Shown here piece by piece: positions 1,483 to 5,737 of a stretch of DNA of 27,873 nucleotides (position 1 is its first letter; each line of letters begins with the position of its first letter). The notes beneath the pieces are model-generated. The model did no database searches. It worked only from the letters and a program-made list of their open reading frames with translations, and was not told the DNA's origin. The DNA is from Myxococcales bacterium. GTDB taxonomy: Bacteria > Myxococcota_A > Polyangia > Fen-1088. The DNA is taken from positions 1 to 27,873 of the forward strand of contig JANPFD010000239.1 in assembly GCA_031423255.1 (NCBI GenBank). The letters run 5' to 3'. The position numbers were made by a program, and so were the translations under genes.

Positions 1483-1554
1483 TGGAGCGACGCGGACTCG
1501 AACCGCGATCTCAGCCGTGCGAGAGCTGTGTCCTCCCAGTTGGACGATCACCCC
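1483..1554 (-). tRNA. tRNA-Ala (anticodon CGC)
   Basis: Hand-folded cloverleaf on the minus strand. Acceptor GGGGTGA/TCGCTCC with a G3:U70 wobble (Ala identity). T-arm CGCGG-TTCGAGT-CCGCG. Anticodon loop CTCGCAC. A73, no encoded CCA. Confidence 0.65.
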
Positions 1555-1606
1555 GGAATCAAGGCACCGGAGCCCCTCCCCCGGTCGTGCCGAGGGAGGG
1601 GCCTGG

Positions 1607-2128
1607 TCACTGCTGCAGAGATCCGCTCCAGTAGGCCGTCCATTCGGTCGGCATTCTCGAGGGATCCATGGCGACGGTCAGCGTGGGCAGCCACCGCGGC
1701 TTCGTCGGATTGCGCAGGAGACGCATCCTCGCCTGCGACGGGGTGCGGTTCGCCTTGGTGGCGTTGCACGGTACGCAGCAGGTCACGATGTTCTCCCAGG
1801 TTGTGCGGCCACCGGCCGCGCGCGGCAGAACGTGGTCGAAGGTCAGGTCCTCCGACGGAAGGCGCTGGCCGCAGTACTGGCAGATGAAGGCATCGCGGGC
1901 GTAGATGTTGAGGCGCGAGAACCTGATCGCCACCTTGTCGCGGCGGAAGCGACGGAGCACGCGCACGACCGCCGGCATCGGGTAGTCGCGCGCGACGCCC
2001 CTGATGGTGCGGTCGCGGCTGTACTCGAGCACCTCGGCCTTGCCGAGGAAGACGTCCACCACGGCCCGCGTCCACGGCTCGATACGCAATGGCCGGTAGT
2101 CCACATCGAGAAACAAAACAGCGGTCAT
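1607..2128 (-). CDS. HNH endonuclease
   Basis: 173 aa with CQYCGQ...DHVLPRAAGG...WENIVTCCVPCNATK (C-x2-C, His-Val, Asn, C-x2-C-N-x-K HNH signature). A strong RBS (AGGAGG, 2136-2141, about 8 nt upstream of the ATG) and two GC hairpins precede it on the minus strand. It is embedded between tRNA genes of the array. Confidence 0.8.
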   Translation of the reverse strand: MTAVLFLDVDYRPLRIEPWTRAVVDVFLGKAEVLEYSRDRTIRGVARDYPMPAVVRVLRRFRRDKVAIRFSRLNIYARDAFICQYCGQRLPSEDLTFDHVLPRAAGGRTTWENIVTCCVPCNATKANRTPSQARMRLLRNPTKPRWLPTLTVAMDPSRMPTEWTAYWSGSLQQ

Positions 2129-2229
2129 GGTGTCTCCTCCTTTCTTTTTTGTCGGGGGGCGCGTCGGACGCGCCCCCCGCGCCCCCGGCTCGCTTCGGCG
2201 GGCAAAGCCCGCCTGCGCGAGCTTTTTTG

Positions 2230-2303
2230 TGGGTCCGGATGGATTCGAACCATCACCTTTCCGGGTTTGAGCCGGCTGCGTCTTCCGGTTGCGCCACGGA
2301 CCC
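2230..2303 (-). tRNA. tRNA with Leu anticodon CAA but class-I (short variable arm) structure
   Basis: Acceptor GGGTCCG/CGGACCC, A73. T-arm GATGG-TTCGAAT-CCATC. Anticodon arm CCGG-CTCAAAC-CCGG. Variable region only ~5 nt. Confidence 0.5.
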
Positions 2304-2315
2304 GTCAGTCGTGCG

Positions 2316-2393
2316 TGGTACCTGGGGAGGGATTCGAACCCTCACTGGACACGTTCTGAGCGTGCTGCCTCTTCCAAGTTGGGCTACCCAGGC
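2316..2393 (-). tRNA. tRNA with Leu anticodon CAG, class-I structure, CCA encoded
   Basis: Acceptor GCCTGGG/CCCAGGT (G1:U72), A73 then CCA. T-arm GAGGG-TTCGAAT-CCCTC. Anticodon arm GCACG-CTCAGAA-CGTGT. Variable ~5 nt. Confidence 0.5.
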
Positions 2394-2398
2394 GTCTG

Positions 2399-2472
2399 TG
2401 GACACGGTCAGATTCGAACTGACACTGCCGACGTTCTCGACGTCGTTCCTCTGCCTGTTGGGATACGTGTCC
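2399..2472 (-). tRNA. tRNA with Leu anticodon GAG, class-I structure (C33)
   Basis: Acceptor GGACACG/CGTGTCC, A73. T-arm GTCAG-TTCGAAT-CTGAC. Anticodon arm CGACG-TCGAGAA-CGTCG. Confidence 0.45.
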
Positions 2473-2479
2473 GTGAACG

Positions 2480-2551
2480 TCCTGGCGTCGGGGATCGAAC
2501 CCGAGCCGTCCGCTTATAAAGCGGCCGCTCGCACCAGCGAGCCTCGCCAGG
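2480..2551 (-). tRNA. tRNA with anticodon UAU (Ile-like)
   Basis: Acceptor CCTGGCG/CGCCAGG, A73. D-stem GCTC/GAGC. Anticodon CCGC-TTTATAA-GCGG. T-arm TCGGG-TTCGATC-CCCGA. Confidence 0.5.
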
Positions 2552-2555
2552 CCAG

Positions 2556-2627
2556 CGGTCCCGACGAGGATCGAACTCGCCTATTCCGGTCGACAGCCGG
2601 ACATCCTCACCAGAGGATTACGGGACC
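2556..2627 (-). tRNA. tRNA-Asp (GUC)
   Basis: Acceptor GGTCCCG/CGGGACC, G73. D-stem ATCC/GGAT. Anticodon TCCGG-CTGTCGA-CCGGA. T-arm GCGAG-TTCGATC-CTCGT. Confidence 0.7.
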
Positions 2628-2656
2628 AATCGCGTGGGCAGCGCCCATCAAGGTTG

Positions 2657-2727
2657 TCGGAGCTGACGGAATCGAACCGTCCTCTACGGTGTGTAGGACC
2701 GCGGCCCAACCACTGGACCAAGCTCCG
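2657..2727 (-). tRNA. tRNA-Val (UAC), C33
   Basis: Acceptor CGGAGCT/AGCTCCG, A73. Anticodon GCGGT-CCTACAC-ACCGT. T-arm GACGG-TTCGATT-CCGTC. Confidence 0.55.
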
Positions 2728-2728
2728 G

Positions 2729-2800
2729 TGCGCGCGGGAGGGGTTGAACCTCCGCTCTCCAGCATGTCGGGCTGGCGTCTTTCCGTTCGACCACGCGCGC
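2729..2800 (-). tRNA. tRNA-Val (GAC), C33
   Basis: Acceptor GCGCGCG/CGCGCGC, A73. Anticodon CCAGC-CCGACAT-GCTGG. T-arm GGAGG-TTCAACC-CCTCC. Confidence 0.55.
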
Positions 2801-2801
2801 A

Positions 2802-2871
2802 TACCGGCGGACGGATTCGAACCGTCCCGCACGACCTTATGGGGGTCGCCTGCTCGCCCGAGCTCGCCGGC
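2802..2871 (-). tRNA. tRNA-Met-like (CAU), C33, truncated D-arm
   Basis: Acceptor GCCGGCG/CGCCGGT. Anticodon CGACC-CCCATAA-GGTCG. T-arm GACGG-TTCGAAT-CCGTC. Only ~16 nt between acceptor and anticodon stems. Confidence 0.45.
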
Positions 2872-4453: not shown

Positions 4454-4460
4454 ATGGTTG

Positions 4461-4533
4461 GGTGACCGCCCGGTATCGATCCGGGACCTTCTCGTTCACA
4501 GCGAGACGTGCAGAGCCACTACACCACGGCCAC
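4461..4533 (-). tRNA. tRNA-His (GUG)
   Basis: Acceptor GTGGCCG/CGGTCAC, C73 (His identity). D-stem GTGT/GCAC. Anticodon TCTCG-CTGTGAA-CGAGA. T-arm CCCGG-ATCGATA-CCGGG. Confidence 0.65.
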
Positions 4534-4653
4534 CATCACAAACATCCACAAGAGACCCGACGGATGGGCGCGAGGGCCATCGTGGAGTTGTTCACCGCTC
4601 GGCACGTCACGGGATATCCGTGGCGTCCGCCGCGCTCTCCTTCCGTCGGTATC

Positions 4654-4728
4654 TGGTAGAGGCGCTGGGGATCGAACCCAGCCCTGCCGCTTATCGAGCG
4701 GCTGCACGTCCCATCGTGCTACGCCTCT
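4654..4728 (-). tRNA. tRNA-Ile (GAU), C33, CCA encoded
   Basis: Acceptor AGAGGCG/CGCCTCT, A73 + CCA. D-stem GCAC/GTGC. Anticodon GCCGC-TCGATAA-GCGGC. T-arm CTGGG-TTCGATC-CCCAG. Confidence 0.6.
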
Positions 4729-4738
4729 GTTTTGGATC

Positions 4739-4882
4739 GGAACCCTGAAAGGGTTCCGCACCTCCCGCGATAGGTGCGTCCGGGCAAAGCCCGTCCGCAC
4801 CTGCGCGTTGGACGCAAAACCCTGAGAGGGTTCCACACCTCCCGCGTAGGTGCATCTGGGCAAAGCCCGTCCGCACCTGCGG
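4739..4882. repeat. two tandem copies of a ~70-nt structured element (GGAACCCT-GAAAG-GGTTCC hairpin + GCACCT...AGGTGCG...GGGCAAAGCCC...CGCACCT), not tRNA-like
   Basis: Copy 1 is about 4739-4808 and copy 2 about 4818-4882, roughly 85% identical. Each has three stem-loops and an AGGTGCG segment that can pair with either an upstream or a downstream partner. Neither copy has a T-loop or an acceptor pairing. Confidence 0.6.
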
Positions 4883-5051
4883 GCGTTGGTCAGGGTGGCT
4901 GGAACTGCCCCAGCGACCTCCGGCTCCCGAAACCGGCGCTCATCTCACCGAGCTCCACCCTGATGTCGCGTCGGAGGAGGACGGGCTACGCCCGGACTCC
5001 TCCATCGCGGGAAGGGCTGGAAACCCTTTCAGGGGTTCCAGCCAAATGAAG

Positions 5052-5124
5052 TGCCCCCGTCTGGAATCGAACCAGCACCTTCCGCTCTTCAGGCGGACGC
5101 CATCACCAGATCGGCTACAAGGGC
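5052..5124 (-). tRNA. tRNA-Phe (GAA)
   Basis: Acceptor GCCCTTG/CGGGGGC (two G:U pairs), A73. Anticodon TCCGC-CTGAAGA-GCGGA. T-arm GCTGG-TTCGATT-CCAG(A). Confidence 0.6.
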
Positions 5125-5209
5125 ATCGTTGTGGCCGGGGTGGTGCCCGGCCACGGGCATCGTCATCTATTCGGTTGTCAGGGAGCGGGTCGATTGCTCG
5201 ACGAATCTG

Positions 5210-5280
5210 TTCGGGGACGAGGACTCGAACCTCGACATGCAGGGTCAAAGCCTGCCGGCCTGCCATTAGCCGATCCCCGA
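5210..5280 (-). tRNA. tRNA-Gln (UUG)
   Basis: Acceptor TCGGGGA/TCCCCGA. D-stem GGCT/GGCC. Anticodon GCAGG-CTTTGAC-CCTGC. T-arm CGAGG-TTCGAGT-CCTCG. Confidence 0.65.
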
Positions 5281-5304
5281 GTTCTTCTTCTGTTTGTCTT
5301 TGCG

Positions 5305-5375
5305 TTCCGGGACGAGGATTCGAACCTCGACACCTGCGTTCAGAGCGCAGGGGCCTGCCATTAGCCGATCCCGGA
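5305..5375 (-). tRNA. tRNA-Gln (CUG)
   Basis: Acceptor TCCGGGA/TCCCGGA. D-stem GGCT/GGCC. Anticodon CTGCG-CTCTGAA-CGCAG. T-arm CGAGG-TTCGAAT-CCTCG. A close paralog of the preceding Gln gene. Confidence 0.65.
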
Positions 5376-5380
5376 TCACG

Positions 5381-5452
5381 TGGGCCGCCAGGGACTCGAA
5401 CCCTGCTATCTCGATTAAGAGTCGAGTGCTTCGCCATCAAAGCTTGCAGCCC
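5381..5452 (-). tRNA. tRNA-Lys (CUU)
   Basis: Acceptor GGGCTGC/GCGGCCC, A73. D-stem GCTT/AAGC. Anticodon CTCGA-CTCTTAA-TCGAG. T-arm CAGGG-TTCGAGT-CCCTG. Confidence 0.7.
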
Positions 5453-5547
5453 GCTGTATTCGCGTGGGCGCAGCGGGGCGTTGCCACGCGGAGCCCGTTG
5501 CGGGAGGGTGCGGGAACCCTTTCAGGGATCCCGCCAAGATCGTTGGT

Positions 5548-5620
5548 TGCCGCCGGTCGGAATCGAACCGACTCACTCCGGTTTAAAAGACCGGTGCCCA
5601 GCCATTCGGGCGTCGACGGC
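5548..5620 (-). tRNA. tRNA-Lys (UUU)
   Basis: Acceptor GCCGTCG/CGGCGGC, A73. D-stem GCCC/GGGC. Anticodon CCGGT-CTTTTAA-ACCGG. T-arm GTCGG-TTCGATT-CCGAC. Confidence 0.7.
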
Positions 5621-5650
5621 TCGAATAGGCCGCCCGCGCGTTTGCTTGTG

Positions 5651-5737
5651 TGGGAGCGACAGGACTCGAACCTGCGAAGTGCGCGTTGGCACGGCTGGTT
5701 TACGGCCAGCCCCCTTTGCCGCTCGGATGCACGCTCC
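5651..5737 (-). tRNA. tRNA-Tyr (GUA), class II, C33
   Basis: 87 nt. Acceptor GGGAGCG/CGCTCCC, A73. Anticodon GCTGG-CCGTAAA-CCAGC. Long variable arm. T-arm GCAGG-TTCGAGT-CCTGT (one mismatch). Confidence 0.55.

Follow-up and report, generated by a model that had tools for sequence, protein, structure and literature searches.

A long tRNA gene array with an embedded HNH endonuclease, shared with large phages and adjoining an Rtc RNA-repair locus in a Myxococcota-like genome

Here we describe a long array of tRNA genes with an embedded HNH endonuclease gene, which adjoins an RNA-repair (Rtc) locus on contig JANPFD010000239.1 of a Myxococcota-like metagenome-assembled genome (MAG). The window under study is this NCBI contig at its complete length of 27,873 bp; the contig is also present in sequencing run SRR20217180, and related loci amounting to 2.77 Mb (coded L002-L118) were fetched for comparison. 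With default settings, ARAGORN called 28 minus-strand tRNAs within 1482-5738 and made no call in the 23.6 kb of the window outside this region. The Rfam model RF00005 gave 26 matches above its gathering score in the array region, and detected Asp-GTC (2556-2627, 52.9 bits) and Pro-CGG (4890-4962, 40.1 bits), both missed by ARAGORN. Weaker Rfam matches to the tRNA clan marked the class II Ser and Tyr genes, Arg-TCT and the stretch 4231-4298, and a 90% threshold in ARAGORN added Thr-TGT (3353-3427), Ala-TGC (4306-4377) and Pro-CGG, with just two extra calls in the remainder of the window.

For the six weak genes outside the default set, the equivalent position in related arrays holds a default-called tRNA for the same amino acid, with the same anticodon in five of the six. 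Trp-CCA (4231-4298) fits the consensus cloverleaf of five called orthologues and shares 87% identity with the Trp gene called in L002; Arg-ACG (2872-2948), a region that ARAGORN at 90% miscalled as an overlapping Leu, fits the consensus of seven called Arg-ACG orthologues; and Pro-CGG is 92-95% identical to the Pro(CGG) of L005 and L006 and to the corresponding stretch of L002 and L007. An Ala tRNA occupies the position equivalent to Ala-TGC (between Pro-TGG and Trp or Ser) in L002, L093 and L095, and Thr-TGT is positionally equivalent to the Thr(TGT) of L002 and L093. The original prediction of 34 minus-strand tRNA genes, folded by hand, was thus reproduced as the same total by ARAGORN, Rfam and orthologue alignment together, the six cloverleaves beyond the default calls being supported at the lower threshold, by Rfam or by their orthologues. 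These 34 genes occupy 4.26 kb in one orientation and carry 33 distinct anticodons, which cover all 20 amino acids and an initiator-like Met, and isoacceptors lie side by side as had been claimed (Lys/Lys, Gln/Gln, Gly/Gly, Thr-iMet-Thr, Glu/Glu, Val/Val). Spacer lengths are bimodal, either 0-29 nt or 83-158 nt, with 20 spacers of 7 nt or less, and the content is non-periodic, an inserted repeat described below being the sole tandem periodicity. By density, content and horizontal transfer, the locus is a long tRNA array (also termed L-array or tRNA array unit).

Members of the array are maintained as cloverleaves, because the stems of Thr-CGT, Trp and Arg-ACG keep pairing through compensatory changes. 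Among 11 orthologues of Thr-CGT, 94.8% of cells were paired and 16 of 21 pairs showed changes on both sides; none of 500 shuffles reached the observed values, and slid partner columns gave only 30-48% pairing. The Trp and Arg-ACG alignments behaved in the same way. The array tRNAs are nonetheless divergent, with Rfam scores of 38-62 bits and four members missed by Rfam. The three tRNA-Leu genes (2229-2472) are 75-78 nt long and have no long variable arm, unlike their orthologues in L002, L093 and L095, which measure 80-87 nt and retain it, and several T-loops are off-consensus. As read from its sequence, the initiator-like tRNA-Met combines a 1:72 mismatch and three G-C pairs at the base of the anticodon stem with the T-loop UGCAACU.

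The base before the anticodon is U33 in nearly all tRNAs. U33 is present in 24 of the array tRNAs, and the other 10 of the 34 have C33 (Tyr, Ile-GAT, Pro-TGG, Gly-GCC, Thr-CGT, Thr-TGT, the Met of 2802-2871, Val-GAC, Val-TAC and Leu-GAG); tRNA-Pro(TGG) in addition has A37 instead of G37. A survey of C33 over the window, L002-L017, L034 and L093-L106 found it in related arrays in 9/10 Ile-GAT, 10/12 Val-TAC and 3/4 Val-GAC genes, and in none of 17 non-array tRNAs of the same loci. Overall, 15-30% of the tRNAs had C33 in arrays belonging to this lineage and 3-8% in more distant viral arrays; it was found in 2 of 28 tRNAs of a Mycobacterium array and in 0 of 20 of a Nostoc array. C33 is therefore isoacceptor-specific and not random. 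It has been proposed that phage tRNAs escape anticodon nucleases through changes in the anticodon loop (PMC10264068), and the C33 pattern fits this idea.

Under standard wobble rules, 15% of the codons in a set of 14 window genes (4910 codons in total) are out of reach of the array anticodons; this share falls to 4% if U34 is taken to read all of a four-codon box. Among the codons left unread are GCC, ACC, AGC and UCC, and some such codons occur in the HNH gene itself. Because the array cannot read 4-15% of local codons, other tRNA genes must exist in the genome; the array is probably supernumerary to a separate housekeeping set, the window being the entire contig.

The HNH gene is intact and lies between tRNA-Leu(CAA) and the terminal tRNA-Ala, with a ribosome-binding site of its own, as had been predicted (a Shine-Dalgarno sequence AAAGGAGG 7 nt upstream of the ATG). 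Its product belongs to the families PF14279 (HNH_5) and PF01844 (HNH) and has a conserved N-terminal domain (about 80 aa) and, after it, a CxxC...DH...N...CxxCN core, in which C83, D98, H99, N113, C118, C121 and N122 are invariant in 20 homologues; the D-H...N...N residues and two CxxC zinc motifs are those of a beta-beta-alpha-metal HNH core. The nearest solved structures are HNH domains of the Cas9/IscB type and 4h9d, and a structure model reached a mean predicted local distance difference test (pLDDT) score of 61.6, with values below 50 in the N-terminal domain, too poor to use. There are 1716 homologues at E ≤ 1e-10; the best 120 of these are 66-86% identical and nearly all 172-179 aa long, the nearest being 86% identical.

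Of the nine closest HNH homologues whose contigs were examined, eight belong to tRNA arrays of the same gene order, in which the HNH gene precedes the final one to four tRNAs. Relatives are encoded on 405 IMG/VR viral contigs, and among the 20 IMG/VR loci L099-L118 (HNH 42-69% identical) 19 have 7-45 tRNAs within 8 kb. In species-representative genomes the nearest copy is that of a Polyangia MAG (73% identical, 30 tRNAs) and the other array-linked copies are all from Myxococcota or "delta" MAGs; the nearest array-bearing genomes are Polyangia, Kofleriaceae and Haliangiales MAGs. The family is not exclusively array-linked, because some members have array-free chromosomal contexts. Copies 45-50% identical in Nitrospirota and Acidobacteriota had no arrays, the Nitrospira one (L040) being a lone gene among cobalamin, sirohaem, alr and frr genes. 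In L091 (10001-10857), likewise, a gene for an HNH of 68% identity stands among ordinary chromosomal genes, in the order histidine kinase, HNH, two housekeeping tRNA-Ser genes and Lon-ClpX-ClpP-trigger factor, and a protein identical to this HNH is encoded on contig L092 from the window's own sequencing run. The family tracks arrays across three phyla, a co-inheritance that is circumstantial evidence for a homing role.

The array recurs as a module. Its gene order, Tyr-Lys-Lys-Gln/Phe-...-Cys-Gly-Gly-Thr-Met-Asn-Arg-Arg-Glu-Glu-...-Val-Asp-Ile-Leu-Leu-Leu-[HNH]-tRNA, is shared by L002-L008, L093, L095, L097 and L099-L106. The module lies in different chromosomal contexts in L003, L004 and L005, and in phage contigs in L093, L095, L097/L102 and L099; in L003, where the chromosomal neighbourhood differs from that of the window, the HNH is 86% identical and most shared tRNA blocks are 84-96% identical in nucleotides. 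The phage contigs carrying it measure 80-130 kb, L093 (132 kb) and L097/98 (81 kb) being phage-like, L095/96 encoding an amidase, a holin and dense small open reading frames (ORFs), and L097 being the same contig as the IMG/VR viral genome (UViG) L102; a 36-kb contig carrying P0004 encodes lysozyme and tail-fibre domains. The module is thus mobile between large phages and chromosomes of Myxococcota-like MAGs. A DNA search of phage and plasmid collections with the array returned only single-tRNA or HNH-sized matches of 70-87% identity, so that no close relative among known array islands was found there at the DNA level, and a discontinuity in G+C content or skew was also absent (array 64-66% GC, flanks 61-70%). 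The prediction that the array is horizontally acquired accessory cargo nevertheless holds, because the module recurs in phages and in other chromosomal contexts, its anticodons leave local codons unread and its tRNAs are divergent. Pfam scans of the 26 window ORFs found no structural, packaging or lysis genes of a prophage, only an integrase fragment.

The most informative part of the array's context is the Rtc operon, which the original prediction had overlooked. Upstream of the array and in the same orientation lies rtcR, which encodes a CARF domain joined to an AAA+ domain and is divergent from rtcB, rtcA and two rlaP genes (10375-14375), the arrangement by which an Rtc locus is recognized. 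A sigma-54-like (-24/-12) promoter, TGGCACgggcgCTGC, precedes rtcB at 10347-10361 with one mismatch; matches to this pattern are no more frequent in the window than expected by chance, and its position is the main argument. The rtcR-rtcB intergenic region also holds a perfect 18-bp palindrome, ACTAGAAAATTTTCTAGT (10278-10295, plus strand), which is unique in the window and likely to be an RtcR binding site. Neither a Y RNA (by Rfam) nor a Ro60 gene was found in the window. The layout rlaP-rlaP-rtcA-rtcB, rtcR, array, HNH is the same in L005-L007, where the best segments reach 81% identity in RtcR, 85% in RtcB and 75% in RlaP, and tandem rlaP paralogues are present in L005 and L006 too. RNA-repair functions also occur beside other arrays, with Ro60/TROVE directly after HNH in L004 and L095/96 and an RtcA homologue about 1.6 kb from the array of L034.

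Nucleotide homology to other arrays spans about 1482 to about 5823-5854, and the module extends on the minus strand from about 5860 to about 1400, comprising a leader, 33 tRNAs and a Ser(GCU)-like gene, the HNH gene and the terminal tRNA-Ala. The leader consists of a small hairpin, a strong hairpin with a T-run (5828-5795), TTTCATTTCCGGAGGTCAATCATGGAAC and a -10-like hexamer, TATAGC, 12 nt before tRNA-Tyr; phage arrays share the leader hairpin and T-run, followed by TTTCATTTCYGGAGGTCRATCATGGAAC, together with a TATAnC hexamer. The hairpin and T-run had been taken for a terminator flanking the array, and they are real. However, they do not mark an outside boundary: they belong to the module's leader, because they are also found upstream of phage arrays. 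A scan for consensus promoters and terminators missed this hairpin owing to an internal mismatch, and it was found by eye and by conservation. The leader may serve as promoter. A sigma-54 promoter before the array was considered and rejected, the nearest GG/GC pair being spaced one base off; motifs of the sigma-54 type were present only ahead of rtcB and just past the stop codon of rtcR. Within the leader, a Shine-Dalgarno-like GGAGG also precedes an ATG (5772); the two are shared with L095 and L005 and could represent a short leader ORF or part of the promoter region.

Seven copies of a two-hairpin repeat of about 80 nt, with the conserved linker CCCTCCCGCGATGG, lie within the module, five in sense and two in antisense orientation (Table 1). 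Each of them has been inserted where L003 and other closest arrays have a spacer of just 1-5 nt, and the repeat was found only inside arrays, namely those of the window and L005-L008, which suggests an element resembling a miniature inverted-repeat transposable element (MITE) that targets inter-tRNA junctions. That the repeat is a degenerate tRNA was rejected, because its copies lie in either orientation and, by comparison with L003, are insertions. Among the long spacers, only 4049-4137 could be accepted as tRNA-like. This 35th member, an atypical Ser(GCU)-like gene uncalled by ARAGORN and Rfam, has five arms: an 8-bp acceptor stem, a 6-bp/3-nt hairpin in place of the D-arm, the anticodon loop AUGCUAC, a long variable arm with a UUCG loop and the T-loop GCAGGAU, with UCCA at the 3' end. 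A homologue with compensatory stem changes is present in phage contig L097 (6057-6137), and its position corresponds to that of Ser(GCT) in L093, directly before Cys.

Two further spacers are structured. The pre-Phe element contains a 24-nt motif, CTGACAACCGAATAGATGACGATG (5181-5158), whose degenerate form is CTGACAACCGAATAG(A/T)(T/C)GACGATG; it occurs once per related array, phage arrays included; 14 of the 15 matches precede tRNA-Phe by 26-46 nt, and the other one precedes tRNA-Gln in L110. Outside arrays, the 2.77 Mb of fetched loci yielded a single match, with five mismatches (L030), and a general phage promoter was rejected as an explanation, there being only one motif per array. The 87-nt spacer 3574-3660 forms a long irregular hairpin with an internal GGUUCCUCC, and similar spacers precede Thr-CGT in L002, L003, L101 and L103. 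The 100-nt spacer between Leu(CAA) and HNH (2129-2228, minus strand) holds two strong GC hairpins flanked by A-runs, the first of which is followed on the plus strand by TTTTTT and could terminate antisense transcription.

Between rtcR and the array lies a four-gene cassette in which only the SPFH/Band-7 gene matched a family, the ORFs of 95, 242 and 126 aa having no match. The cassette is absent from the relatives L005-L007. In L005 the leader begins about 190 nt after rtcR, and because window positions 6045-5860 are homologous to that region, either one lineage has gained the cassette by insertion or the other has lost it; ancestrally, rtcR was probably followed directly by the array. A sigma-54-like motif, TGGCCCgccgcTTGC (8637-8651), starts 5 nt after the rtcR stop, and the cassette might be sigma-54/RtcR-dependent. 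PADLOC assigned no defence system to the SPFH cassette, the PIN toxin or RlaP.

On the other side of the array, the predicted integrase remnant is confirmed as a 43-aa fragment and the toxin as a PIN-domain protein, and the putative antitoxin ORF (1025-1330) matched no family. The best named family of the toxin is the tRNA(fMet)-specific VapC (NCBIfam, E = 1.6e-19, below the family cut-off), and it adjoins an array that carries an initiator-like tRNA with an altered T-loop, to which it might be connected. The remaining contig holds ordinary chromosomal genes, namely a two-component system, VWA proteins, an extracytoplasmic function (ECF) sigma factor, TatC and an M28 peptidase.

Table 1. Features of the window, with the module listed from its leader to its end and the surrounding genes after it.
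Feature	Position	Strand	Evidence and remarks
Conserved leader	5739-5860	-	Sequence reading; computed fold; conserved upstream of arrays in L095, L097, L099, L103, L005
tRNA-Tyr(GTA)	5650-5738	-	ARAGORN; class II, C33
tRNA-Lys(TTT)	5548-5620	-	ARAGORN; Rfam 53 bits
Repeat copy 1	5458-5540	-	Between Lys and Lys; absent at this junction in L002, L004, L005, L093, L095
tRNA-Lys(CTT)	5380-5452	-	ARAGORN; Rfam 50.8 bits
tRNA-Gln(CTG)	5304-5375	-	ARAGORN; Rfam 56.6 bits
tRNA-Gln(TTG)	5209-5280	-	ARAGORN; Rfam 59.9 bits
Pre-Phe element	5125-5208	-	Variable hairpin, 24-nt motif, GC-rich hairpin; fold z = -3.1
tRNA-Phe(GAA)	5051-5124	-	ARAGORN; Rfam 56.1 bits
Repeat copy 2	4965-5047	-	Between Phe and Pro-CGG; fold z = -6.65
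tRNA-Pro(CGG)	4887-4962	-	Rfam 40.1 bits; ARAGORN 90%; atypical T-loop GGCAGUU
Repeat copies 6 and 7, tandem	4730-4808, 4808-4884	+	Between Pro-CGG and Ile-GAT
tRNA-Ile(GAT)	4654-4728	-	ARAGORN; Rfam 50.7 bits; C33
tRNA-His(GTG)	4460-4533	-	ARAGORN; Rfam 52.6 bits
tRNA-Pro(TGG)	4379-4454	-	ARAGORN; Rfam 49 bits; C33, A37
tRNA-Ala(TGC)	4306-4377	-	ARAGORN 90% only; weak, atypical D and T loops
tRNA-Trp(CCA)	4231-4298	-	Rfam clan match 27 bits; orthologue alignment; weak
tRNA-Ser(CGA)	4138-4225	-	ARAGORN; class II
tRNA-Ser(GCU)-like gene, atypical, 89 nt	4049-4137	-	Hand fold and computed fold; 35th member
tRNA-Cys(GCA)	3976-4048	-	ARAGORN; Rfam 53.4 bits
Repeat copy 3	3892-3973	-	Between Cys and Gly-GCC; L003 spacer 2 nt
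tRNA-Gly(GCC)	3816-3888	-	ARAGORN; Rfam 38.4 bits; C33
Repeat copy 4	3734-3807	-	Between Gly-GCC and Gly-TCC; L003 spacer 1 nt
tRNA-Gly(TCC)	3661-3732	-	ARAGORN; Rfam 62.2 bits
Structured 87-nt spacer	3574-3660	-	Long irregular hairpin; fold z = -5.1
tRNA-Thr(CGT)	3501-3573	-	ARAGORN; covariation in 11 orthologues; C33
tRNA-Met(CAT), initiator-like	3428-3500	-	ARAGORN; Rfam 45.5 bits
tRNA-Thr(TGT)	3353-3427	-	ARAGORN 90%; weak, C33, T-loop UGCAAGU
tRNA-Asn(GTT)	3276-3348	-	ARAGORN; Rfam 60.4 bits
tRNA-Arg(TCT)	3201-3274	-	ARAGORN
tRNA-Arg(CCG)	3121-3196	-	ARAGORN; Rfam 58.6 bits
tRNA-Glu(CTC)	3042-3116	-	ARAGORN; Rfam 48.9 bits
tRNA-Glu(TTC)	2949-3024	-	ARAGORN; Rfam 55.3 bits
tRNA-Arg(ACG)	2872-2948	-	Hand fold; orthologue alignment; BLAST to L004/L006; weak, aberrant D-arm, encoded CCA
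tRNA-Met(CAT), elongator Met or Ile2	2802-2871	-	ARAGORN; 70 nt, C33
tRNA-Val(GAC)	2727-2800	-	ARAGORN; Rfam 61.1 bits; C33
tRNA-Val(TAC)	2656-2727	-	ARAGORN; Rfam 50.7 bits; C33
tRNA-Asp(GTC)	2556-2627	-	Rfam 52.9 bits; missed by ARAGORN default
tRNA-Ile(TAT)	2479-2551	-	ARAGORN; Rfam 48.6 bits
tRNA-Leu(GAG)	2398-2472	-	ARAGORN; Rfam 46.3 bits; 75 nt, no long variable arm, C33
tRNA-Leu(CAG)	2316-2393	-	ARAGORN; Rfam 51.8 bits; 78 nt
tRNA-Leu(CAA)	2229-2303	-	ARAGORN; Rfam 54.8 bits; 75 nt
HNH endonuclease, 173 aa	1607-2128	-	Pfam HNH_5 63.7 bits (cut-off 27.5), HNH 48.7 bits
tRNA-Ala(CGC), terminal, 3' of HNH	1482-1554	-	ARAGORN; Rfam 54.1 bits
Repeat copy 5	1406-1480	-	Directly after last tRNA, module end
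PIN-domain VapC-like toxin	633-1037	-	Pfam PIN 45 bits
Tyrosine integrase, C-terminal fragment	78-425	+	Pfam Phage_integrase 30.2 bits (cut-off 27.1), 43 aa, profile positions 129-171
Four-gene cassette: orf8272 (95 aa), SPFH/Band-7 (7162-8268), orf6437 (242 aa), orf6046 (126 aa)	6046-8651	-	Between rtcR and array
RtcR, CARF domain and sigma-54 AAA+ activator	8656-10257	-	Pfam RtcR 272 bits, Sigma54_activat 161 bits; PADLOC RtcR 822 bits
rtcB	10375-11634	+	Pfam RtcB 433 bits
rtcA	11637-12650	+	Pfam RTC 265 bits
rlaP (first)	about 12664-13614	+	Pfam PF10127; hidden in long ORF overlapping rtcA in another frame
rlaP (second)	13611-14375	+	Pfam PF10127

The role of widespread long tRNA arrays is debated, the proposals being codon supply, a reserve for translational stress and counter-defence against tRNA-cutting nucleases. 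It seems probable to us that the present locus is a horizontally acquired long tRNA array with an HNH gene, of a lineage shared by large phages and Myxococcota-like hosts, and that it serves as a phage-derived reserve pool of tRNAs linked to the repair of tRNA damage. Transcription of the array would yield one polycistronic precursor or a few, from which host tRNA-processing enzymes would release the single tRNAs; once aminoacylated, these could form a second, sequence-divergent tRNA pool for all 20 amino acids and the initiator. In a phage, such a pool would sustain translation when host tRNAs are depleted or cleaved. In the chromosome, it may act as a reserve that is physically coupled to, and perhaps co-regulated with, the RtcR-controlled rtcB-rtcA-rlaP-rlaP genes, whose products would re-ligate and mend cleaved tRNAs. 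The C33 of ten tRNAs and the A37 of tRNA-Pro plausibly make these molecules poor substrates for anticodon nucleases, and the HNH protein, presumably a DNA nuclease, most likely spreads or maintains the module in the manner of a homing endonuclease. A more ambitious proposal, which we regard as rather unlikely, is that array, HNH and RNA-repair genes form one cassette that sustains translation under tRNA attack and that large myxophages and their hosts exchange, in which C33-type tRNAs (Ile-GAU, Val-UAC/GAC, Thr, Pro) would resist anticodon nucleases such as toxins of the VapC type, RtcR would detect cleaved host tRNA and switch on both repair and array, the highly conserved HNH would have a dedicated role instead of being a selfish passenger, and the conserved spacer elements (the pre-Phe motif and the atypical Ser-GCU-like RNA) would be functional.

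Several observations weigh against a working reserve pool, and some of them would equally suit its main rival, namely that the array is a decaying remnant: the inert cargo of a degraded prophage or island, mostly pseudogenes or unexpressed, whose position beside the Rtc genes is accidental. The six sub-threshold tRNAs, the short Leu genes without a long variable arm and the non-canonical T- and D-loops mean that some array members may be inactive, and the seven repeat insertions could disrupt co-transcription or processing. The assignment of a promoter to the array is weak, there being a -10-like hexamer but neither a good -35 nor a sigma-54 motif ahead of the array, and the Rtc adjacency shared by the window and L005-L007 may go back to one ancestral insertion instead of having been selected repeatedly. 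To these, the remnant explanation could add the integrase fragment and putative toxin-antitoxin module at the left flank, as well as the poor transcription of the Acidithiobacillus and Anabaena L-arrays under standard conditions (PMC8421152). Yet a decaying locus would hardly keep an intact HNH frame 86% identical to its nearest relative, all 20 amino acids and the initiator, stems maintained by compensatory changes across orthologues and a C33 that is confined to particular isoacceptors; the rtcR-array layout has moreover persisted in a lineage in which RtcR is only up to 81% identical, and RNA-repair genes recur beside independent arrays. We thus judge decay unlikely. A different possibility, that the locus is the main or only tRNA complement of the organism organized as one large operon, could draw on its coverage of all 20 amino acids with an initiator-like tRNA, on a GC content matching the flanks and on the limitation of the window to one contig of the genome, but it is essentially excluded by the codons that the array cannot decode, GCC, ACC, AGC and UCC among them and the HNH gene included, by the low Rfam scores and frequent C33, and by the same module in phage contigs and unrelated chromosomal contexts.

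The role of the HNH protein is the least secure part of our explanation. It may not be homing, because the protein is conserved at about 70% identity across hundreds of sequences, which is unusual for a selfish homing endonuclease, and because the family has a stand-alone, array-free branch (Nitrospirota, Acidobacteriota, L091). It has to be considered, then, whether HNH is a functional partner of the array, a nuclease directed against nucleic acids of the host or of competitors (possibly tRNAs, like PtuB of the retron/Septu systems) for which the array would supply resistant replacements. Conservation over the full length, N-terminal domain included, the strict coupling to arrays across phyla, weak PADLOC matches to PtuB and the co-induction of the Anabaena HNH gene with its array (PMC8421152) speak for such a partnership, as does a PtuAB effector reported to deplete tRNA-Tyr (PMC11555353). 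The PtuB similarity is, however, confined to the HNH core of about 55 aa, the closest solved structures are DNA-cutting HNH domains, the Nitrospira family member stands alone among housekeeping genes and the model of the N-terminal domain is no guide to its function. A partnership of this kind therefore appears distinctly improbable.

A tRNA array with an HNH gene is of a kind already described in cyanobacteria, mycobacteria and phages, and we found no evidence of a new mechanism at the locus. What is new here is the occurrence of one module in large phage contigs and in varied chromosomal contexts, its adjacency to Rtc and Ro60 genes, the isoacceptor-specific C33 and the seven repeat insertions. 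No paper linking tRNA arrays with Myxococcota was found in the library searched, which is not proof of novelty. Through this locus the association of array, HNH and RtcB, known from cyanobacteria, reaches another phylum together with the large phages of that phylum. The locus also represents the tightest physical link in our analysis, with the array directly downstream of the damage sensor RtcR and beside a ligase, a cyclase and two end-mending RlaP proteins. The C33 tRNAs, and an HNH family that tracks arrays across three phyla, provide two testable handles.

The cyanobacterial L-arrays are, like that of the window, long, non-periodic, in one orientation and horizontally spread, and they are supernumerary, as the array of the window probably is. 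The plasmid array of Anabaena sp. PCC 7120 is a trn operon of 26 genes with the HNH gene all8564 (PMC8421152), an HNH gene is conserved next to cyanobacterial L-operons (Santamaria-Gomez et al., 2021; PMC8421152), and a Nostoc plasmid encodes an HNH of the same family, 36% identical to ours, directly before 20 tRNAs. rtcB recurs near these arrays and is co-regulated with them, the Anabaena array, HNH and rtcB being co-induced by translational stress (PMC8421152). The window differs in its high-GC Myxococcota-like host, in an HNH gene that lies inside the array near its 3' end rather than upstream, in the frequency of C33 and in an array that physically adjoins a complete rtcR/rtcB/rtcA/rlaP locus; a direct-repeat promoter of the TrcR type was not evident in the window, no search having been aimed at such a promoter.

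Mycobacterium tRNA array units likewise comprise about 30 tRNAs, and the HNH endonuclease is their most widespread coding sequence (Morgado and Vicente, 2018; PMC5966550). They are shared among plasmids, phages and chromosomes, including linear plasmids of M. avium (PMC12803027), and plasmid NZ_LT703506 of M. intracellulare carries a homologous HNH (36% identity) inside an array of 28 tRNAs. In contrast to the window, these arrays have a different tRNA order, no nucleotide similarity, actinobacterial or plasmid carriers, rare C33 and no Rtc adjacency in the stretch examined.

The repair genes themselves resemble the Rtc systems of Salmonella and E. coli (RtcR-sigma54-rtcBA; rsr-yrlBA-rtcBA), with a CARF-type RtcR divergent from rtcBA and a promoter of the sigma-54 type. 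Ligands and substrates of Rtc systems are tRNA-like RNAs or tRNA fragments (as cited in PMC8421152). The window differs from them by the array downstream of rtcR, by the lack of Ro60 and Y RNA and by two rlaP genes that extend the operon; RlaP extends damaged RNA ends by one or two nucleotides and is required before repaired tRNA can be charged again (PMC12776372).

Large phages offer further parallels. Jumbo phages combine tRNAs with RtcB, RlaP and TROVE proteins (Iyer et al., 2021; PMC7824862), and in Mx1, jumbo phages and T4 (segB and its tRNA region), tRNAs, a free-standing endonuclease and Ro60/TROVE, RtcB or RlaP share one genome as they do, in part, in the window. Myxococcus phage Mx1 has a homologous HNH (39% identity) between two tRNA-Leu genes and a TROVE protein 5 kb upstream, and the arrays of the phage contigs L093, L095 and L097/L102 are syntenic with that of the window. 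Unlike these, the window is a fragment of chromosome (two-component systems, TatC, ECF sigma factor) without phage structural genes, and its repair genes are a host-type, RtcR-regulated operon. If the link between array and repair genes is functional, "repair plus replace" would be a general strategy that bacteria and phages hold in common against tRNA-targeting toxins and immune systems.

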